Notes under the pieces: model-generated
Told to the model about the DNA's origin: nothing
Database searches by the model: none
What the model saw: only the letters and a program-made list of their open reading frames with translations
Source: an uncultured virus (IMG/VR IMGVR_UViG_3300046472_000138)
Lineage: Duplodnaviria > Heunggongvirae > Uroviricota > Caudoviricetes
IMG/VR virus record: IMGVR_UViG_3300046472_000138
Reading direction: 5' to 3' (one strand)
DNA length: 24,288 nucleotides
Program-made: the position numbers and the translations under genes
Part shown: one piece after another, positions 2,357 through 24,288 of the stretch
Layout: the number at the start of each line of letters is the position of its first letter
Numbering within the stretch: the stretch's first letter is position 1

Positions 2357-2358
2357 AC

Positions 2359-2565
2359 ATGATTCGAGTCGGAGTGCGGCGTACTCACCCAATCGAAGAT
2401 AAATGTGAGGTTACTTTCCAAGCCGACTCGAAAGCATTGATCACTCTTTTAAAAGAATTGCAGGTTGCACAGAAATGGGGATACGCAACAGAAGTCAGTG
2501 CAGTAGATATTTTCGTAGCATTGGCGCAGTTGGACAAGGAATCAAACAAGGTGAGAAAGTGGTAG
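2359..2565 (+). CDS. Hypothetical protein
   Basis: 68 aa ORF starting 2 nt after the upstream stop. Confidence 0.55.
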   Translation: MIRVGVRRTHPIEDKCEVTFQADSKALITLLKELQVAQKWGYATEVSAVDIFVALAQLDKESNKVRKW

Positions 2566-2756
2566 TGAGTAGGCGCATTGATCCCCTTTGCGCCGAGGGT
2601 GGGTTGTGGGCTACTATGATTTCCGAAGGTGAACAATCTACCTGGCTAGGGTCGGCCATGCGGCCTCTGCCGGGACCAAAAGCAAGCAAGGAGTAGCTAA
2701 CTAAAGGGCTCCAGATTGTCACCACATGGATTTATTGTTTGAATTGATTAGGAACT

Positions 2757-2984
2757 ATGATAAAAAGCGTGAACATAGGGGACAACGGAAAAGGACTTAC
2801 GACGATTCATATTGATTGTGATCTTGCACAAACGGGAATCGAGTCAATAGATGTGGTTTGCGAACCAGGCAAGGCGCAACAGGCTCAGGACTTCGTTTTA
2901 AAGATCATGCAGATTATGTCATTGCCTGATAAGGTCACAAGAGCGGCCGGAGGAATAGGAGAATTGTTTAAGGCGAAGAGATGA
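2757..2984 (+). CDS. Hypothetical protein
   Basis: 75 aa ORF with AGGA upstream. Coupled to the next ORF by ATGA. Confidence 0.65.
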   Translation: MIKSVNIGDNGKGLTTIHIDCDLAQTGIESIDVVCEPGKAQQAQDFVLKIMQIMSLPDKVTRAAGGIGELFKAKR

Positions 2985-3127
2985 AAAATTATCCACCTAC
3001 CTATACCGGCCAAATTCAATGCGCTGTCTGTGCAAAGAAAATTAAGTTTTGGATTAAAATAATCGGGATTGAAATATATTGCCAAGATTGCTGTGATTGG
3101 GTAATTGATTTTTTGAAGTCGCACTAA
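2981..3127 (+). CDS. 48 aa zinc-finger-like protein (not in the ORF track)
   Basis: Manual translation MKNYPPTYTGQIQCAVCAKKIKFWIKIIGIEIYCQDCCDWVIDFLKSH has two CxxC motifs. ATGA overlap. Confidence 0.6.
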   Translation: MKNYPPTYTGQIQCAVCAKKIKFWIKIIGIEIYCQDCCDWVIDFLKSH

Positions 3128-3184
3128 CAAAATTTATTCGGTTTATTCCGAGCTGCGCGGCCCGGGATAGCCCAAAAGCAGTAC

Positions 3185-3233
3185 AGAAAAAGCCTCTTTC
3201 CTTGATCAAGGGGGAAGGGGCTTTTTCTATTTT
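3185..3233 (+). terminator. Intrinsic terminator-like hairpin, possibly bidirectional
   Basis: AGAAAAAGCCTCTTTCC...GGGAAGGGGCTTTTTCT inverted repeat with G-U pairs, followed by ATTTT. Confidence 0.75.
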
Positions 3234-3247
3234 GGGAGTAAATAAAT

Positions 3248-4480
3248 ATGTGGCAACCAGTCAGAGTCGTGAATCCGTACAATCCGAGAAGTAGAAAACA
3301 TTTTTGGACATTTGAGGGTAAGCCTGGATACCGACCTAAGCACGTTAGTTATGTAACTGGAAAAAGAGCTCCTGCTTGGTCTTTTGGTCAGAGTCCAGCC
3401 GCAAAATCATTGAGGAGGCATAAAAAGAAACTCAGAAAAAGTGGGAGTCTTTTCAATCCCACTCGTCGTCGCAATCAAGACATTGTGACCGGCGCAATTG
3501 CAAGCAAGATAGCGGATCAGGTGGCAGGAAAACTCGGCGGGATGTTTGGGAAGCCAAGGAAGAAGAAGGCGGCAACAAAGCGCAGACCACGGCGCAATCC
3601 AGCTTTAGCAGTGATCGGACTGAATCCTAGCAAACCTAAAAGGAGAGTCAAAATGGCAACTAGGCGAAGGAGAAAACGAAATCTCCCAAGGCGTAATGCT
3701 AAGGGTCGGTTCGTTAAGAAGGCTTCAACAACACGCAGGCGAAGAAAATCAAATCCAGTTCATCGACGCAGACGAAGACGCGTCGCTAATCCCATTAAGC
3801 ATCGCCGTAGGCGGCATGTCCGAACTACGCGACGGCGCAGACGTACTAATCCGGTTCGGGCAATCCGCAGACGAAGGAGATCACCTGTTATGGCACATCG
3901 AAGACGCAGGCGGAAAGCAAACCCCGTGCGACATCATCGTCGTCGTCGGCGGGCTGCTGCCGCTGTAGTGAATCGGCATCACAGAAGGCGAAGAGCATCA
4001 AATCCACGGAGTTATAGTCGAAGTCGGCGTGGCCGTCGGCGTAATGCAATGCTCGGCGGGACGTTTTCAAGAATCGATTGGAAGTCAGTGCTTTTTGTTA
4101 GTGGCGGGGTCTTCTTGGGAGACAAACTCACCGGCCTTGTCAGTGACAAGATTATGAGCATGACAACCATGATTCCTAGCACAGCAGGGCCGTGGGTTAA
4201 ATTGGCTGTCGGAGTATTGGCGGCTGGCTTGGCCTGGAAATACCAGCCCGCGTTTGGCTTAGGCATAGCAGTCGGAGCAACCAATTCCTTGATGAACCAA
4301 TATGTCTTTGGTCCGGCATGGGGCTATGTTGCACCATCAATCGGGATGTCTGGCTTGGCTGACTACCAGAATCGGGCATTCAAACAAGATAACTGGATCG
4401 GGCAAAGTTCAGGCGGACCAGGGGCAGCGGGAACGATGTCTGGATTCGGGATGAATCCTTTGCTTCAAAATACGCTGTAA
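3248..4480 (+). CDS. Arg-rich, protamine-like putative genome-condensing/core protein with NP motifs and a hydrophobic C-terminal domain
   Basis: GGGAG RBS. Poly-Arg tracts separated by NP. C-terminal hydrophobic segments such as WVKLAVGVLAAGLAW and FGLGIAVGA. Confidence 0.8.
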   Translation: MWQPVRVVNPYNPRSRKHFWTFEGKPGYRPKHVSYVTGKRAPAWSFGQSPAAKSLRRHKKKLRKSGSLFNPTRRRNQDIVTGAIASKIADQVAGKLGGMFGKPRKKKAATKRRPRRNPALAVIGLNPSKPKRRVKMATRRRRKRNLPRRNAKGRFVKKASTTRRRRKSNPVHRRRRRRVANPIKHRRRRHVRTTRRRRRTNPVRAIRRRRRSPVMAHRRRRRKANPVRHHRRRRRAAAAVVNRHHRRRRASNPRSYSRSRRGRRRNAMLGGTFSRIDWKSVLFVSGGVFLGDKLTGLVSDKIMSMTTMIPSTAGPWVKLAVGVLAAGLAWKYQPAFGLGIAVGATNSLMNQYVFGPAWGYVAPSIGMSGLADYQNRAFKQDNWIGQSSGGPGAAGTMSGFGMNPLLQNTL

Positions 4481-15837: not shown

Positions 15838-16416
15838 ATGCCAAGCCTTAGCGACATTCAAAATCTGATCATACAAGATGCGACTCAGCAAGGGTTAAAT
15901 CCTGCCTTGGCCTTGGCGGTTGCTGAGGCTGAGAGCGCATTTAATCCAGGCGCGGTTAGTCCGGTTGGCGCGGTTGGGGTGTTTCAATTGATGCCTGCGA
16001 CGGCTGGGGATTTAGGGGTTGATCCTTACGATTGGCAACAAAACATCGACGGAGGGACAAGATACCTTTCCAGCCTATCAAGTCATTACCCTGGGCGACC
16101 TGATTTGATCCTAGCGGCTTATAATTGGGGGCTTGGGAATGTCAATCGGATGATTTGGGGAAGTACAGGATTTCCACCAGGGCAAACGATACAAGCGTTC
16201 TCGACCTCGCAGGTCATGGGAAGCGTACCGGCCGAAACTTCAGCCTATATCAATCGTGTTACTTCCCTGATGGTCAAATGGTCAAATGATCCGATCTTGA
16301 TTGGTGTGCCAGGAACAGATAATGGTGGCGGGGTTGACATCACAAATGGGGATCAGTTAGTTATCATCGGGGTTGTTGTGGGGGTGATGTTGCTTTGGGT
16401 GATGCTAAAGAGGTAA
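15838..16416 (+). CDS. Lytic transglycosylase (SLT family) with a C-terminal membrane anchor
   Basis: AES catalytic Glu motif, GVFQLMP, AAYNWG, ETSAYI. C-terminal LVIIGVVVGVMLLWVMLKR. Confidence 0.92.
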   Translation: MPSLSDIQNLIIQDATQQGLNPALALAVAEAESAFNPGAVSPVGAVGVFQLMPATAGDLGVDPYDWQQNIDGGTRYLSSLSSHYPGRPDLILAAYNWGLGNVNRMIWGSTGFPPGQTIQAFSTSQVMGSVPAETSAYINRVTSLMVKWSNDPILIGVPGTDNGGGVDITNGDQLVIIGVVVGVMLLWVMLKR

Positions 16417-16626
16417 TTTCCATTCCATGTCTTCTTCCTTGCAGCCTGTATAAACAATCTTTTCTCCATCATATACGGTAGCCCTGGGATCAATAAATAT
16501 AGTCTGTTTCCCATCATCAATAAATGGATTGCTTATTTTTTGACCTTTAAACGGAGGAAGCAAAGAAAGATTTCCAGTTACATTAAGCTCCTTTCCGCTC
16601 GGATAGATGATGTGGTAATTTCTCAT
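16405..16626 (-). CDS. Hypothetical protein
   Basis: ATGA coupling and GGAG upstream. The 3' end overlaps the convergent SLT gene. Confidence 0.6.
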   Translation of the reverse strand: MRNYHIIYPSGKELNVTGNLSLLPPFKGQKISNPFIDDGKQTIFIDPRATVYDGEKIVYTGCKEEDMEWKLPL

Positions 16627-16877
16627 TCCTTCTCCTCCTCAACCTCAACCTTGTAAGTGCCATTCTGCATGGCATTCCTTAGCTCAACCATTGACAGCCT
16701 AGCCTCTTTCTCTGAGTCGTATTCGCGGCTGATGATGTCTGAGCGGTCAAGGTCTAGGATGTTCACAACATAGAATCCGGCATCATTCTTGGCTATCCTA
16801 ATAAAGTGCGTGACAGGTTGATGACCAAGAGGAGTAATAAGTTCTTTTTGTTTATGTTTGAATTTGAAGAGGCTCAT
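16623..16877 (-). CDS. Hypothetical protein
   Basis: Start at 16877 (MSLFKF) preferred because of GGAGGGG and ATGA coupling. Confidence 0.65.
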   Translation of the reverse strand: MSLFKFKHKQKELITPLGHQPVTHFIRIAKNDAGFYVVNILDLDRSDIISREYDSEKEARLSMVELRNAMQNGTYKVEVEEEKE

Positions 16878-17107
16878 TTCCCCTCCGGTACCCATTCATA
16901 ACAATAATCGTCAGTAGCAACCCACGGCCAACAGGTTGCATAAGCCTCTCCATCCTGCATCATGCCTTCCATTTGACAATGCGGGGCCTTCCGGTGACAA
17001 GTCCCGCCATTTTCATCTTCTGGAACAAAAGCACCGCAATTCCCGCAAGACTGATCTTTTGATTTAGCCATTTTCCCCCCTCTTTTTATTTTGACTGTGT
17101 TGGACAT
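16874..17107 (-). CDS. Small Cys-rich phage protein
   Basis: CGNC...GTCHRKAP...WPWV...DYCYEW pattern. May start at 17071. Confidence 0.7.
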   Translation of the reverse strand: MSNTVKIKRGGKMAKSKDQSCGNCGAFVPEDENGGTCHRKAPHCQMEGMMQDGEAYATCWPWVATDDYCYEWVPEGK

Positions 17108-17295
17108 TAATGACCTTTTCCCATAACTTCTTCCACTATTCCTTTAAAGTAATCTTTTAACGCCTGCTCAGTAAGTTCATCGAAGATTTCGTGTTTTATG
17201 CTTTCTGGCCTTTTATCCCACATTTCAGAAAGAAGATCATCAACACCAAACAAGCCGCTTTCCGAAGCGATTTGAAGAAAGCGTTGCTTCGTCAT
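17107..17295 (-). CDS. Hypothetical protein
   Basis: Coupled ORF with a GGAG/GGA RBS. Confidence 0.6.
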   Translation of the reverse strand: MTKQRFLQIASESGLFGVDDLLSEMWDKRPESIKHEIFDELTEQALKDYFKGIVEEVMGKGH

Positions 17296-17510
17296 TTCTT
17301 TTCCTTCTCCAATTCGGCAAGGAGGGCATCGGCAAGAGAAACTGTGTTAGTAACTAATCTATTTTGCAATTCATTGGTAATCGGAAGCGCACCACTAGCC
17401 CTAATAATTTCTAGCAGAATATCCTTTGCTAGATTGAAGCGGCGATCACTTGTGGTTCTTGGGATTACTCCGCAACCTTCTGACATTCCCTCAGTCTTTT
17501 CATTGCTCAT
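17292..17510 (-). CDS. Hypothetical phage protein
   Basis: Coupled ORF ending in the common phage motif ADALLAELEK. Confidence 0.7.
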   Translation of the reverse strand: MSNEKTEGMSEGCGVIPRTTSDRRFNLAKDILLEIIRASGALPITNELQNRLVTNTVSLADALLAELEKEKK

Positions 17511-18064
17511 AAACTCACCCTCGCCTTGTAACGGTAAAATGTGGCAATTGAGATATTAGTCAGTTTACAAATATCTTCTGGTTTATTGGTTGGGTCTTTT
17601 GCAAGGCTGGTAAACATTTCAAGGGTTTTTCCTTTGAGTGACTTGGGCCTTCCTCCGGTCCTACCTCTTAATCTTGCTGCTGCCAGTCCTGCCATTACTC
17701 TTTCTTGGGTTGTTGATCTTACAAATTCAGCTAAAGCGGCAAATACATGAAAAACCAATCTGCCGGTGGCGGTATTCGTATCCATTGATTCAGTTAAGCT
17801 AACAAATTCAATTCCGTTTTTTCTCAAACTCTCAACAGTAGACACTAAATGAACCAATGACCTTCCAAGCCGATCAAGTTTCCAAACAACCAATGAATCT
17901 CCAGATTTTAAAGAATTGAGGCAATCTTTCAATCCAGGCCTTTCATTATCTCCACCGCTTAAATGATCACTGAAGACCTGATCACACTTAAATTTGTAAA
18001 GTGCATCAAGCTGGAGATTTAAATTTTGATATTCGGTTGAAACTCTGGCATATCCGATCTTCAT
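17507..18064 (-). CDS. Small serine recombinase (resolvase/invertase family) with a C-terminal HTH
   Basis: MKIGYARVST, LVVWKLDRLGRS, GRTGGRP, ISIATFYRY. Start at 18064 has GGAG upstream, and the longer track start is unlikely. Confidence 0.95.
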   Translation of the reverse strand: MKIGYARVSTEYQNLNLQLDALYKFKCDQVFSDHLSGGDNERPGLKDCLNSLKSGDSLVVWKLDRLGRSLVHLVSTVESLRKNGIEFVSLTESMDTNTATGRLVFHVFAALAEFVRSTTQERVMAGLAAARLRGRTGGRPKSLKGKTLEMFTSLAKDPTNKPEDICKLTNISIATFYRYKARVSL

Positions 18065-18065
18065 T

Positions 18066-18188
18066 TTATCAAAACTCCACTTCCCATTTTGTTTTTGATT
18101 ATGAGGTAATGAGAAATCTTTTTGATAGTCTGAAGAATAGCACAAAATGGTTTCATGTCAAAAATACTATATCCACCTGTTTTTGAGA
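18066..18188. promoter_or_regulatory. res/hix-like recombinase binding sites
   Basis: TTATCAAAAC (18066), GTTTTTGATT (18091), CTTTTTGATA (18118), TGTCAAAAAT (18156), GTTTTTGAGA (18179). These resemble hix half-sites. Confidence 0.65.
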
Positions 18189-19376: not shown

Positions 19377-19607
19377 TCATTCTGACTTATCCATCATATT
19401 TATTAAGGCCGTTTCTAATCTCAACTGCTCCTCTTCTAGCATGGAGATACGTAATTCTCTTCGCACCAGAATGGCGGTTGCTTCAGTCTGAAACTTTTTC
19501 AACCGCTTAATTTCAGCATCTTGATGGCTCAGGCCAGCAGCGTATCCTTGTTCCCATGCTTCAACATTAGTTGTCTTGACACCGTAAATATCATAAGGAT
19601 TCTTCAT
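19377..19607 (-). CDS. Coiled-coil phage protein
   Basis: AWEQGYAAG and DAEIKRLKK motifs. Confidence 0.65.
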   Translation of the reverse strand: MKNPYDIYGVKTTNVEAWEQGYAAGLSHQDAEIKRLKKFQTEATAILVRRELRISMLEEEQLRLETALINMMDKSE

Positions 19608-19744
19608 TGCCCTACTCTCTTAGACTTCCAAATCTTCCTTACATCTTGAATCTTGCCTTGCTCACGCAGCATCTTGGCGAGTCGCGGACCTCCCATGATG
19701 GTCTTGGCATCTTCGTTCCAGCACCTGTCTTTTCTGAGTTTCAT
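19604..19744 (-). CDS. Small basic protein (MKLRKDRCW...)
   Basis: GGAGG RBS and ATGA coupling suggest a start at 19744 within the track ORF 19604-19867. Confidence 0.5.
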   Translation of the reverse strand: MKLRKDRCWNEDAKTIMGGPRLAKMLREQGKIQDVRKIWKSKRVGQ

Positions 19745-20061
19745 ACATCCTCCATTTTTAGAATTTTGAATTTGCCAACTTTCTTCCGATGGGCTATTTC
19801 GCATTTGACATGGAAAGGGAAATTCCCTCTTCTGAGATTGATTTTCTTCTTCCCGCAATACCGGCAAATATCCTTGATATGCTCTTCTGTTTTTTCATCT
19901 GCTACAAATTTAAGATCAAAAAGAACGCATATTTCCTGAAGTCCTGAAATCGCTTTCTGCCGGTCATACTGCTTGAACTCAACAAACTTTTTAATCTCGG
20001 CAAAGGTTTCTGAAACAGTATAGAGCAGGAATTTTCTCACTTCAGGATCGAGGTTGTTCAT
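19741..20061 (-). CDS. Hypothetical protein with a CxxC...HxxC motif
   Basis: CRYC...HVKC. Coupled ORF. Confidence 0.65.
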   Translation of the reverse strand: MNNLDPEVRKFLLYTVSETFAEIKKFVEFKQYDRQKAISGLQEICVLFDLKFVADEKTEEHIKDICRYCGKKKINLRRGNFPFHVKCEIAHRKKVGKFKILKMEDV

Positions 20062-20132
20062 CGTTCTGCCAACTTCACAAGAATGTAGACAATGGAAAAA
20101 ACGATAGCGATTGCGAAAATAAGATCAATCAT
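20058..20132 (-). CDS. 24 aa single-TM peptide
   Basis: MIDLIFAIAIVFSIVYILVKLAER, with ATGA overlap to the next gene. Confidence 0.45.
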   Translation of the reverse strand: MIDLIFAIAIVFSIVYILVKLAER

Positions 20133-20146
20133 ATGATTTCAATGAA

Positions 20147-20465
20147 TCCAGTGGAAGTCTCAGACCTGCCGACCAAGGTTAGCCTGAGACTAGGCAAGCC
20201 GCCTTCTATCCACTGGAACTGATTCCCCGCTTGGCTTCCTCTTAGCTGTATATCCAAGCTAGCCGTCAACCCTAATGGGCTGTCCCGTCCAACAGGAGCG
20301 GGGAAACTTGATTCCCTCCCTCCGTGAGAGTATCGGATAAGCTCGTCAGCAAACCAGTTGTGCTCTCTCACGCTTCGCAGCCGGAACCGGCGTACTCGGC
20401 CAGCACAGGCAAGGGAGGGAAACTTGATAAGTTATTATTCCACGGCGGGACGCTGAATCCCGCCG
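20147..20465 (-). ncRNA. Candidate structured RNA array: three closed-stem domains with a repeated linker, plus one hairpin
   Basis: Perfect closing stems 20147-55/20209-17, 20223-31/20297-305 and 20312-21/20412-21. Each is followed on + by AC(T)TGA. Strand assumed from the surrounding genes. Confidence 0.55.
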
Positions 20466-20525
20466 CCTTCTTCCGTTAAGAATCACCGTTTCTGGATATT
20501 CAAGACCTCCTTTTATGGGGATTTA

Positions 20526-20999
20526 CTAAATCGTTTCCTTCCCAAAGTTGTCGATAAAGGATTTCGGAAGTTGACCTGATTTCAACCCAGAAATAATCAG
20601 ATTCAAGTCCATGATGGTGTCTTGATCTTGATGGGCGACTTCTTTAAGCCTAGCATTCTCCGCTTCCAACTCTTCAATGCGCTTCAATTCTTCGACAGGT
20701 GCGCTATTGAGTTGAGCAAGGGCTTGACCTAGCTTGGCGTTCTCCGCTTCGAGTTGGGCGATGCGCTGATAGCAATAATCTATTGATATGCCTCGACTCT
20801 TCCATACTACCGTCAGCCGCTCAATCTCTGCTTCGAGGGTGGAGATACGCTGTTTATCCTGGAATATTGGGGCAAGAAGAGCCTTCTTCAGCCGCTCAAT
20901 CTCCGCATCTTTGACTTCAATCAGCATGACTACTTCCGGAGCCCTGCACCACTCCCCAGGAATATGCCTAAAAGTATAGCGATCAATACTCGATTTCAT
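20526..20999 (-). CDS. Coiled-coil phage protein with repeated EAE(I/N)xRL units
   Basis: DAEIERL, EAEIERL, EAENAKL, EAENARL. GAGGA RBS. Confidence 0.75.
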   Translation of the reverse strand: MKSSIDRYTFRHIPGEWCRAPEVVMLIEVKDAEIERLKKALLAPIFQDKQRISTLEAEIERLTVVWKSRGISIDYCYQRIAQLEAENAKLGQALAQLNSAPVEELKRIEELEAENARLKEVAHQDQDTIMDLNLIISGLKSGQLPKSFIDNFGKETI

Positions 21000-21333
21000 C
21001 TAGGGCTTCCTCCTCACAAAGATTCCCTTGCCTGTTTTCATTGACAATGAGTTGATATTCAAATGTTCCAAGGTAGCAGGCTCTTCGTTGTTTATTTACG
21101 GTATGATAACCAAACCTTTTCTTTCTCAAATGCCTCAACTGTGCGCTGATACTGGCTTGTGGATCGCCTGTAATTGTTTCAATCTCTGCCAGAGTGCGCC
21201 ATTCACCATCTTGCATCAGGTCGTAAATACGGAGGATTTGACCTGTCAACCGGGCATCATCTAACTCGCGGTCATAGTCCGAGCCAGTGAAGCGGAATTC
21301 AAGTGGTAGCTGGCGGTTCTCTTCGGTCATCAT
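20983..21333 (-). CDS. Winged-helix DNA-binding phage protein
   Basis: LMQDGEWRTLAEIETITGDPQASISAQLRHLRK. Confidence 0.8.
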   Translation of the reverse strand: MMTEENRQLPLEFRFTGSDYDRELDDARLTGQILRIYDLMQDGEWRTLAEIETITGDPQASISAQLRHLRKKRFGYHTVNKQRRACYLGTFEYQLIVNENRQGNLCEEEALDEIEY

Positions 21334-21481
21334 TTAAAAGTCCATCATCAATCAGGGATTGCCAGAACCAATCATTCAGGCCACGCTCGGCATCCTGCCT
21401 GTCTTTATCGGAAATGTCAGTCCTTTGCAAATAGGCTTGCAGTTGTTTCAATTCTTCTTGTGTCTGGGGCTTCAAAATCAA
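21299..21481 (-). CDS. Hypothetical protein
   Basis: GGAGG RBS before TTG. Overlaps the methyltransferase C-terminus and fills the gap. Confidence 0.45.
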   Translation of the reverse strand: MILKPQTQEELKQLQAYLQRTDISDKDRQDAERGLNDWFWQSLIDDGLLNDDRREPPATT

Positions 21482-22178
21482 GTACCTCCTGCTGCATTCG
21501 TTTGGCAGCTATCTCGCAATAGCGTTCTTCAATCTCGATTCCGATGGCTTTACGGCCCAGGTCTTTGGCGGCTCTGAGGGTTGTTCCGCTACCCATAAAC
21601 AGATCTAGCACAATTTCTTCCGTATCTGAAAACAAGGCCACCAGTTCCTTGATCAACTTAAGCGGCTTCTGCGTTTCATGATAATTGCATAAACCGCCGA
21701 ATTCACCCTTGTTGTGGATAAATACTCCATGCTTCCCACCACCGTTCCATTCCGAGCGGCCCTGAGCATGACACGCTATGAAAGTCTCATAACCCATACC
21801 TGGCCGGTCTCCGCTATATTGTGGCATCCCATCCGGCTTGACCCAAATACAAGTTCTTCGGTAGTTCATCCCACTCGCTTCTAATTGCTCGCGCCACAAC
21901 ATTGCCGCTTCGATCTGGCAGAAAACCAGTGCCCAACCAACACACAGTCTTGATATTTCTCTGGCCGCATCCTGTCTAAGTTCAAAGCTGAGGGGTTCAA
22001 AGCTGAGGGGTTCATTACCTAGGCCATTTCCACGCCTCACCCGTCTTTGCAAAGTATGCGCTTCTGCTTCATAAGGTGGATCAGTCAACACCAAATCTAC
22101 CGGCTCAAGTTGAGGCAGTATCTCCCGGCAATCGGCATGGTAGATGGTAACGGCTGAATCTTGGTAGTAAGGGGTCAT
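21417..22178 (-). CDS. N4-cytosine/N6-adenine DNA methyltransferase (beta class), orphan
   Basis: LTDPPY precedes HETQKP and LDLFMGSGTT, then GIEIEERY. Start at 22178 (MTPYYQD) overlaps the RecT stop. Confidence 0.93.
   Translation of the reverse strand: MTPYYQDSAVTIYHADCREILPQLEPVDLVLTDPPYEAEAHTLQRRVRRGNGLGNEPLSFEPLSFELRQDAAREISRLCVGWALVFCQIEAAMLWREQLEASGMNYRRTCIWVKPDGMPQYSGDRPGMGYETFIACHAQGRSEWNGGGKHGVFIHNKGEFGGLCNYHETQKPLKLIKELVALFSDTEEIVLDLFMGSGTTLRAAKDLGRKAIGIEIEERYCEIAAKRMQQEVLDFEAPDTRRIETTASLFAKD
21980..22014. repeat. 15 bp tandem duplication inside the methyltransferase
   Basis: GTTCAAAGCTGAGGG x2 plus GTTCA, encoding EPLSF-EPLSF. Confidence 0.9.
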
Positions 22179-23305
22179 TTCATCTGCCCCAAAGAATCGG
22201 CAATCTCTCGCATCCAGGCAACGTTCTCGCAGCTTGCCAAATCTTGCACAGTTAAAAACATATGGCCCATGCTGCATTTGCATTTCAGGGAGATGTTTTT
22301 CAGGATCTCTTCCATGATACTCGGATTGTTTGATCGGCTGATAAGAAGGTCTTGAATATCCATTCTCAAGCTGGCAATTTCTTTTTGCTTGGGGTCTTTT
22401 TTGCCTTCTTGTATTCTGTGATTAATGATTTCACTAGAAGGCTCATTTCGTTCGGATTCATTCCCTCCGCTAACAACCTTATTATCTCTTCCGGTTGAGC
22501 TATGATTATTAATTTCATTGTCTTCCTCCTGTATTTTAGGATTTGGCTTAATCAATCTAATTTCCTGTGGACTCGGCAGCACTCCGAAATTGTCTTCTTC
22601 GAGCGGTAAATCAATGTGGTTTTTGTCATCGACTGAATCGAGAGCGATTGACTGTCGTAGTTCTACTGATGCTGGCAGAGACTTGCAGAGTCTTTTCAAA
22701 ACTGTCTTCTTTGCCATCTCAACAAAGTCAGTAACCCAGGGGCCGTCATCTGCCGCTCGGCTTCTCAATCTGACCTTTTCAATCTCTGAAAGGTCCATCA
22801 CTTCAAATTGAGTTTCATCAGAGCGGAGTTTTGCCACAGCGTAAACATAAGTCAACTCTCCACGCTCACCAAGTGCTGGTTTATGCTGCAATCCTTCGTT
22901 TAATCCATACCAATATTCAAAGATATCATTTTCAAGGACTGCCCTTGCGTAGATTGCTTTGATTTCTCCAGACCTTCGGGCGATAGCACACAATCCCTGA
23001 TAGCCTGGAATCATTCGGCAAATGTATTGCCCTGTCTTGTTTTTGAATGGTATCAAGTATGCCTGTCCTAGCACACGTCCTGGCTCTAATCCCAACTGGC
23101 TACATTCCATGAGTGCCCCAAGGAAACTCTCTGCGGTGCATTCATTGAGATGTTTCACGGTTTGGAAATCAGTGAGGGCCATTCGGATGATGCGGGCAGG
23201 GTCAAGATGCTTCGGTAGGACTTTCTGGATTTCAGGTTTCATCTTTTCAAGCAATCCCCTGATAGTGTCTATCTTTGTCAATCCTTGCTGGACTTGTTTG
23301 TTCAT
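22175..23305 (-). CDS. recT: RecT-family single-strand annealing recombinase with a C-terminal extension
   Basis: LPKHL, SQLGLEP, GQAYLIPF, GYQGL, ARRSGEI, GPWVTDFVEMAKKTVLKRLCKSLP. Confidence 0.93.
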   Translation of the reverse strand: MNKQVQQGLTKIDTIRGLLEKMKPEIQKVLPKHLDPARIIRMALTDFQTVKHLNECTAESFLGALMECSQLGLEPGRVLGQAYLIPFKNKTGQYICRMIPGYQGLCAIARRSGEIKAIYARAVLENDIFEYWYGLNEGLQHKPALGERGELTYVYAVAKLRSDETQFEVMDLSEIEKVRLRSRAADDGPWVTDFVEMAKKTVLKRLCKSLPASVELRQSIALDSVDDKNHIDLPLEEDNFGVLPSPQEIRLIKPNPKIQEEDNEINNHSSTGRDNKVVSGGNESERNEPSSEIINHRIQEGKKDPKQKEIASLRMDIQDLLISRSNNPSIMEEILKNISLKCKCSMGHMFLTVQDLASCENVAWMREIADSLGQMK

Positions 23306-23951: not shown

Positions 23952-24288
23952 TGATTTTTGCCTGTTTAAACCCCTCCTCAATCCCGACAGTTGGTTGAGA
24001 ATTAATGTCCGGCTCATCAAGCCAGCGTTTTCGGTTGAGATAGGTTGTTGGGTGGGGAATATAGCCAGCAATCCAGCCGCGGGAAGTCTTTTGCCATTCC
24101 AATGCTTTCAGAATTAGGTCAAGAGCGCCGTTCCCTAGTTTCATCTTGATCCAAGTCTCAAGGCATTTAAGTTTATCGACCTTCTTGGGGTACGAAGTCC
24201 AAAAAACCACAAACTCCGCAGGTGTATTTGTTTCATTTTCTTTAATTATCTTTCTTTTTCTTTTATTGTTAGTGTCCTCTTGCTGCTC
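23941..24288 (-). CDS. Phage replication initiator/replisome organiser, C-terminal part (5'-partial)
   Basis: Frame is open to the window edge. FVVFWTSYPKKVDK...YIPHPTTYLNRKRWLDE motif. Confidence 0.8.
   Translation of the reverse strand, partial: EQQEDTNNKRKRKIIKENETNTPAEFVVFWTSYPKKVDKLKCLETWIKMKLGNGALDLILKALEWQKTSRGWIAGYIPHPTTYLNRKRWLDEPDINSQPTVGIEEGFKQAKINEK

Follow-up and report, generated by a model that had tools for sequence, protein, structure and literature searches.

A statistically solid array of three stem-closed units of no known family between minus-strand genes of an uncultured tailed phage, read tentatively as a modular RNA locus

The DNA analysed here, which we call the window, is a stretch of 24,288 nucleotides from an uncultured virus of the Caudoviricetes (IMG/VR record IMGVR_UViG_3300046472_000138), and the stretch is found near-identical in at least 24 soil and rhizosphere DNA runs, twenty of which are marked as possible sources. 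Tailed-phage genes, among them those for a tail protein, a glycosyltransferase-like protein and a lysozyme/transglycosylase-like protein, run on the plus strand to about 16.4 kb, and all genes from 17507 to the end of the window at 24288 are on the minus strand. The latter encode a small serine recombinase of the resolvase/invertase type (17507-18145), an annealing protein of the RecT family (22175-23305) and a DNA methyltransferase (21417-22283), in addition to several small ORFs. The recombinase gene adjoins the end of the tail and lysis genes (16416-17507), and its product could drive an invertible tail-fibre switch or integration; three 8-bp inverted repeats chained at 17896-18150, inside this gene, are probably a chance occurrence. 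The RecT ORF encodes 376 aa, with the RecT domain at residues 38-221 followed by a long C-terminal extension, and it shares 109 nt (22175-22283) with the start of the methyltransferase ORF. The nearest named phages are only about 49% identical, and since its two distant matches in species genomes are only 39-42% identical, no host was inferred from them. Elsewhere in the window, 890 nt between the 108-aa and 410-aa genes (2357-3247) contain no ORF of at least 90 aa on either strand, and no phage match was found for the 410-aa protein. The most stable plus-strand segment of the window after GC correction is at 3090-3250 (fold z = -4.3). It holds a textbook intrinsic terminator at about 3185-3228, upstream of the 410-aa gene, with a 19-bp stem, an A-run before it and a U-run after it, which is possibly bidirectional, and a second branched structure at 3090-3180.

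The element described in this study sits in a gap of 464 nt (20062-20525) that separates two genes on the minus strand. Upstream is the gene of a 157-aa coiled-coil protein (20526-20999), which gave no family above any curated cut-off and only two matches in a search for relatives, both coiled-coil chance similarities. Downstream is the gene of a 106-aa protein (19741-20061), basic and with a Cys-rich C-terminus. A search of 1.84 billion representatives gave only seven relatives of this protein, the closest of them 62% identical, and relatives of the gene were absent from IMG/VR and from the metagenome contigs. In its family the N-terminal half is helical and conserved, and the C-terminal part is basic with conserved cysteines (C66, C87 and mostly C69). 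The protein may bind zinc and nucleic acid; the best score in a protein atlas search was 0.86, which is a lead only. A 116-aa gene is located at 20983-21333. Searches with PHROGs, Pfam, PADLOC and NCBIfam found no ToxN-type, Cas, reverse-transcriptase or defence family among the neighbours, and a reverse transcriptase was matched by none of 25 ORFs with PHROGs and none of 21 with Pfam.

The gap holds three adjacent units of 71, 83 and 110 nt, each with a perfect closing stem of 9-10 bp, whose folds we describe on the minus strand for reasons given below. Unit 1 (20147-20217, 71 nt) is closed by the inverted repeat TCCAGTGGA/TCCACTGGA (20147-20155 / 20209-20217), and this 9-bp stem is predicted to stack on a hairpin of 8-11 bp, accompanied by a small side hairpin. 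Unit 2 (20223-20305, 83 nt) is closed by the 9-bp inverted repeat TTCCCCGCT/AGCGGGGAA (20223-20231 / 20297-20305) and is predicted to form a four-way junction on the minus strand. Unit 3 (20312-20421, 110 nt) has the 10-bp closing stem TTCCCTCCCT/AGGGAGGGAA (20312-20321 / 20412-20421), a multi-branch interior and an 8-bp sub-stem. Two interior sub-stems, in units 1 and 3, are themselves perfect inverted repeats. The units have in common only the ends of their closing stems (UUCC...GGAA) and the linker, and their interiors differ. Beside unit 3 is a GC-rich hairpin (20443-20450 / 20458-20465) with 8 perfect pairs, or 10 when G-U pairs on the minus strand are counted; it lies 60 nt past the stop of the 157-aa gene.

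The units are joined by very similar short linkers. On the minus strand, the linker between the hairpin and unit 3 (20422-20442) reads AAUAAUAACUUAUCAAGUU, its 3' end being the shared punctuation AUCAAGUU; that between units 3 and 2 (20306-20311) reads UCAAGU, or AAUCAAG|UUUCC with its flanks, and is predicted to be unpaired (0.83); and that between units 2 and 1 (20218-20222) is a shortened copy, UCAGU. As a direct repeat, the linker is present as two copies of the 12-nt GGGAAACTTGAT. The punctuation AUCA(A)GUU precedes each unit on the minus strand, and AAUCA recurs after unit 1. There, the AT-rich tail of the array, which is also the 5' leader of the 106-aa gene (20062-20146), contains a perfect 12-nt palindrome, AATCATATGATT (20127-20138), at the site where strain variants break away from the reference (20131/20132; see below), the recurring AAUCA lying beside it. 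A sequence-only reading of the window had described the 71-, 83- and 110-nt units with their perfect 9-10 bp stems, the unlike interiors with sub-stems, the near-identical junctions and an 8 bp hairpin at 20443-20465, and each of these features was recovered at its place in the sequence. Besides the 12-nt linker, the only direct repeats are three matches of 8-10 nt, and no second copy of the units or stems was found elsewhere in the 24-kb window. The array forms a GC island of 0.53-0.56 (about 55%) against 0.37-0.43 (about 40%) in its flanks, a common feature of structured RNA genes where the genome is richer in AT. That the array is real DNA and not an assembly artefact is shown by a contig from run X21, a run not marked as a possible source, that covers 19700-20854 with zero differences.

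How far such an arrangement departs from chance was judged against shuffled sequences. The window contains 16 perfect inverted repeats of at least 9 bp with arms 20-120 nt apart, compared with 7.1 +/- 2.5 in block shuffles, and as these repeats are common in the shuffles, one such stem alone means little. Three adjacent stems chained as in the array were found in 0 of 300 shuffles, and a chain of two in 3 of 300. Against dinucleotide shuffles, the 351-nt region folds with z = -3.5 on the plus strand and -5.1 on the minus strand, and none of 100 shuffles was as good on either strand. On either strand, the ensemble computed for a 421-nt context gives the closing stems a mean pair probability of 0.91-0.98. 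A candidate fourth unit at 19934-20047 was dropped, as it lies inside the 106-aa gene, which is shown below to be coding.

Several lines of evidence point to the minus strand as the strand of the array RNA. Pairing is better there: the three units and the hairpin form 26, 28, 34 and 10 pairs on the minus strand compared with 25, 24, 32 and 8 on the plus strand, and the per-unit folds contain 13 G-U pairs compared with 4. When folding energy was regressed on GC content over 150-nt windows of the whole stretch, the array accounted for four of the five most stable minus-strand windows and for none of the ten most stable plus-strand windows. The flanking genes are on the minus strand, no consensus promoter was found near the array, and the region 19600-21100 contains no terminator-like site on either strand. 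From these observations we infer, on the basis of modelled folds, that the minus strand is probably the transcribed one, and the array can then be read as part of an early operon transcript in the order hairpin, unit 3, unit 2, unit 1 and 106-aa leader. The call is weakened by the fact that thermodynamics and G-U counts favour any strand richer in G+U. The minus strand is the richer one, and the shuffle means themselves differ by 14 kcal/mol between strands in its favour.

It is conceivable that the array belongs instead to an antisense transcript of the operon, a small RNA of about 330 nt on the plus strand that starts just before unit 1 and ends at the 20443-20465 hairpin. The hairpin would then follow the array, as the sequence-only reading had it, and would have a tail moderately rich in U behind it, CCUUCUUCCGUU; a weak pair resembling a promoter (TTGCGA, 15 nt, TATGAT) is found at 20111-20137, upstream of unit 1; and the plus-strand fold does beat its shuffles (z = -3.5). 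However, with its spacer of 15 the promoter-like pair gives no site in the consensus scan, and the hairpin lacks the U-tract that marks the clear terminator at 3185-3228. As neither strand carries a U-tract there, the hairpin was rejected as a canonical terminator. Since the plus strand also forms fewer pairs and has the array missing from its ten most stable windows, we regard such an antisense RNA as rather unlikely, and the evidence favours a minus-strand order in which the hairpin leads.

The array matched no known RNA family. ARAGORN found no tRNA or tmRNA gene in the whole window, and Rfam 15 gave no match at gathering score. Within 19950-20650, the Rfam tRNA model had no match even at E up to 10, and the only hit at that threshold was PK-repZ, outside the array and at 11.5 bits compared with a gathering score of 44. 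The families covered include C4 antisense RNA, ToxI, 6S, Y RNA and GOLLD/ROOL, so the array finds no support as a known riboswitch, ribozyme, phage antisense RNA, antitoxin RNA or large ornate RNA. A check against Rfam, which had been proposed for each unit, thus placed the array in no known family on either strand. Group I introns and self-cleaving ribozymes were dropped on the same grounds, integron attC sites because the linker does not fit their conserved core, and a CsrA-type sponge because the GGA motifs are in stems and not in loops. The array also has no CRISPR-like repeats or repeat-spacer pattern, which agrees with the earlier statement that it is neither CRISPR nor tRNA. As the units share no sequence beyond the UUCC...GGAA ends and the linker, the array is not built of repeats in the manner of CRISPR or ToxI. 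The closing stem of unit 2 may resemble the stem of a type I-E CRISPR repeat.

Could a protein explain the sequence? An 80-aa ORF with a GTG start (20129-20371, minus strand) overlaps the array, and the sequence-only reading had named coding selection on this ORF as the finding that would speak against a non-coding element. The ORF exists, is on the same strand as its neighbours and fills part of an otherwise long gap. It has no match in Pfam, PADLOC or NCBIfam, and among proteins of 44-140 aa in a collection of 5.8 billion none has three 5-residue words in common with it, despite the presence of the DNA in at least 24 runs. The ORF extends over units 1 and 2 and only half of unit 3, so that the closing stem of unit 3, the linkers and the hairpin cannot be accounted for by it. 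That a real small protein has shaped this sequence is, in our estimation, extremely improbable.

Homologous arrays were sought in several collections. The 464-nt gap had no blastn match in 50,697 phage records. In IMG/VR, the 16-nt linker occurred at 10 loci, none alike past the seed, and two linker-pair patterns occurred at 2 and 5 loci, all coding sequence or tandem repeats; a linker-pair pattern in the metagenome collection gave 9 loci, all unrelated tandem or coding repeats. A search for linker-joined stems in other phages, which had been suggested for this locus, thus found no homologous array by blastn in the phage records or by linker patterns in IMG/VR and the metagenome collection, and each stem of the array is supported by a single sequence. 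Two of the repeat loci, a 38-nt unit repeated 5.8 times (L046:1485-1705) and a 47-nt hairpin unit repeated 8 times (L049:1259-1643), hold the window's linker 12- to 16-mer; they share just 16-27 nt with the window, and the overlap is probably chance. A scan for chains of 8-bp inverted repeats over 189,574 bases of loci was too noisy, with chains of two and three in repeats and coding DNA, and one candidate from it (L007) was dropped as AT-rich coding DNA. The 116-aa gene has 23 relatives in IMG/VR (38-67% identity), and by blastn the array is in none of them; in two (L012 and L013), the sequence downstream of the homologue, as inspected, is unrelated to the array. In L013 (2788-2861) and L025 (2901-2977), a co-oriented tRNA-Arg(TCT) lies immediately upstream of the 116-aa homologue, which provides a precedent for RNA genes within this type of operon. 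In the early region of a related phage, a 226-nt gap between small genes (L015:355-580, plus strand) contains stem-closed units with z = -3.2 and is unlike the window array in sequence and position. A survey of open-access full-text literature for phage RNA arrays or RNA decoys like this one returned nothing comparable.

Further evidence came from strain variation. Contigs from four runs were aligned on 19700-21000, and a second strain is present in two of them, X22 and X24. In the 106-aa gene, the second strain differs at 16 (X22) and 20 (X24) sites, about 8% apart. That 25 of these 36 differences fall at codon position 3, with 4-5 conservative residue changes per strain, indicates that the gene is truly coding. 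Between 20101 and 20477 there are no base differences or indels among the aligned contigs, a region in which unaligned variant contigs cannot show any. Consecutive contigs of X22 overlap by exactly 30 nt, as for graph unitigs, and they break at 20220/1, 20312/3 and 20438/9, that is, within the three linkers or next to them. A variant contig of X22 (526 nt, depth 12.7) aligns to 19867-20131 with 21 differences and rejoins the reference at 20221-20250, carrying about 231 unlike letters in place of the 89 nt, unit 1 with its tail, that are found in the reference branch (384 nt, depth 13.2). The replaced segment is thus bordered by the left break point (20131/20132) and, on the right, by the linker 20218-20222. 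The contig carrying unit 2, at a depth of 24.2, is approximately the sum of the two branches, and unit 2 is unchanged and common to both. The unit-3 contig has a depth of 17.3, between neighbours of 24.2 and 25.1, and a branch of depth 7.7 lies just beyond it, which suggests a third path in X22 that replaces unit 3. The same joint, 20131 to 20220, is found in X24, where the variant past 20220 seems to keep only a common island of about 30 nt. Contig ends and mean contig depths, on which the cassette reading is based in place of variant letters, suggest that co-occurring strains swap whole units with borders at the linkers while the shared units stay identical. Small indels and skips of 75 and 112 nt also set the variant strains apart at the 3' end of the 157-aa gene (20478-20679), so the array is bordered by variable sequence on both sides.

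Break points at the borders of the array are also in line with an element that acts as DNA, its hairpins or cruciforms serving as a priming site, a replication-initiation site or a hot spot for RecT-type recombination with no functional RNA involved. The perfect inverted repeats form on both strands, the array lies within a recombination/replication module (RecT, methylase), and the AT-rich stretch with the 12-nt palindrome adjoins it. On the other hand, there are no iterons and no direct repeats beyond the 12-nt linker, an initiator gene was not identified nearby, and elaborate branched interiors, here with most of their G-U pairs on one strand, are a trait more often met in RNA. We therefore consider a purely DNA-level role improbable.

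If the array is transcribed, it could still act only in cis. REP/BIME hairpins and the RNase III hairpins of T7 early mRNA are cis-acting elements of their transcripts, and an intercistronic element of this sort could block 3' exonucleases, set processing sites or insulate translation. The array lies between co-oriented genes without a promoter or terminator of its own, and its stems are very stable. The search for trans targets points in the same direction. Loop complementarity to viral genes had been suggested as a clue to function, and within the window none stood out above chance, so that an antisense target was not found: counting perfect matches only, there are 14 inverted 10-mers (some overlapping) compared with about 8 expected and 2 inverted 12-mers compared with about 0.5, and none of these is at a ribosome-binding site. 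However, a protective hairpin is far simpler than the three unlike multi-branch domains of 71-110 nt seen here, a simple stabiliser would not be expected to have a repeated linker or to be replaced unit by unit between strains, and the units and stems have no other copy in the window. A cis-acting element is in our view unlikely, but it deserves to be taken seriously; were the array merely a stabiliser in cis, it would be a modest curiosity.

We tentatively favour, at somewhat less than an even chance, the reading that the gap encodes a co-transcribed modular array of non-coding RNA, which is cut at the linkers and swapped between strains as cassettes. The anatomy suits a series of self-contained RNA folds with a repeated single-stranded linker between them, and to that extent it partly bears out the sequence-only proposal of a precursor cut into small RNAs or a multi-domain antitermination element, for which decoy or antitermination roles would be hypothetical. 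The array would be transcribed on the minus strand within an early operon that includes RecT, the methylase and small genes. The leading hairpin would be followed by independently folding multi-helix domains of 110, 83 and 71 nt, each clamped by 9-10 bp, and the short, A/U-rich, single-stranded punctuation AUCA(A)GUU would separate them. A host endonuclease could then cut the punctuation and free the clamped domains as separate stable small RNAs, which may act in trans, most plausibly by binding proteins. The same punctuation would provide the borders for exchange of whole domains between related strains. One candidate for the cutting enzyme is RNase E, for which PMC5222698 gives the core motif RN|WUU as mapped in Salmonella. 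Two minus-strand linkers (AAG|UUU) and the third (CAG|UUC) fit this motif (PMC5222698), which is short, is expected at about 1 in 64 positions by chance and is also partly fitted by the plus strand (AAC|UUG).

The array so read would work most like a polycistronic cluster of tRNAs or small RNAs, yet it belongs to none of the families tested. Phage tRNA clusters, including that of T4 with its two extra stable RNAs, consist of tandem RNAs from a common precursor with variable content. Like them, the array has stem-closed units of 70-110 nt set head to tail with very short spacers in a phage transcription unit, is presumed to be cut from a common precursor and appears to vary in content between related phages. 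Unlike them, its closing stems are of 9-10 bp and not 7, its junctions and loops are not those of a cloverleaf, and its spacers are a repeated motif. The c4 antisense RNA of P1/P7 and the CI RNA of P4 are small stem-closed regulators processed from a longer operon transcript. The array resembles them in offering small stem-closed phage RNA candidates within an operon, and it differs in having no Rfam match, no loop-target complementarity above chance in the window, and three unlike units instead of one. The REP/BIME and BOX elements of bacteria are short imperfect palindromes with many genome copies, conserved short linkers and a variable number of units, and they are transcribed together with the genes beside them. 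The array is likewise an intergenic mosaic of stable units joined by conserved short linkers, but its units are long, branched and unique, and it is found as a single copy in the 24-kb window.

Type III ToxI consists of near-identical repeats of about 36 nt beside a ToxN-type gene, and ToxI-like arrays, RNA anti-CRISPRs and solitary repeat units are phage- or plasmid-borne RNA units that are processed at defined sites and bind proteins. Under the modular RNA reading, the array would share with them tandem RNA units, processing at defined sites and protein binding. Its units differ from one another, however, and no ToxN-type gene is adjacent. The antitoxin-like (type III) role offered by the sequence-only reading is accordingly not borne out, as both near-identical tandem repeats and an adjacent ToxN/AbiQ-type gene are missing. 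A further parallel is offered by the PeSL cassettes of T4-type phages, which are described in PMC2839356 and PMC4122927 as a promoter and stem-loop motifs flanking protein-coding ORFs. In both cases, short conserved motifs border variable modules that are inserted, deleted or replaced between close phages (PMC2839356, PMC4122927). Compared with the cassettes as described there, the array has modules that are non-coding structured units in their own right, with a linker of 8-14 nt as the motif in common.

Turnover of whole units between near-identical strains is the pattern of an accessory or arms-race locus, and by this analogy it supports, but does not show, a role in host interaction. One specific version, which we put forward as speculative and rather improbable, is that the array is a set of RNA cassettes, equivalent at the RNA level to an anti-defence or accessory-gene island of a phage. 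Its unrelated modules would have separate host proteins to bind or decoy, such as a defence nuclease or an RNA-binding regulator; the punctuation would then be both a processing site and a border at which modules are gained, lost and swapped in the arms race.

To our knowledge, nearly all known phage anti-defence and host-takeover factors are proteins, and phage non-coding RNAs are poorly charted. The array is a real, statistically solid structured element of no known family, with an unusual modular build, described from one sequence and indirect strain evidence. If it is expressed and cut as proposed, it would show that one promoter of a phage can serve several structured RNAs, unrelated to each other and exchangeable as modules, and the shared punctuation would serve both processing and shuffling. 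Structural and binding studies would then gain three new RNA folds of 71-110 nt, and the array's build of stem-clamped units, a repeated linker and a GC island in an early operon would provide a template for mining other phage genomes.
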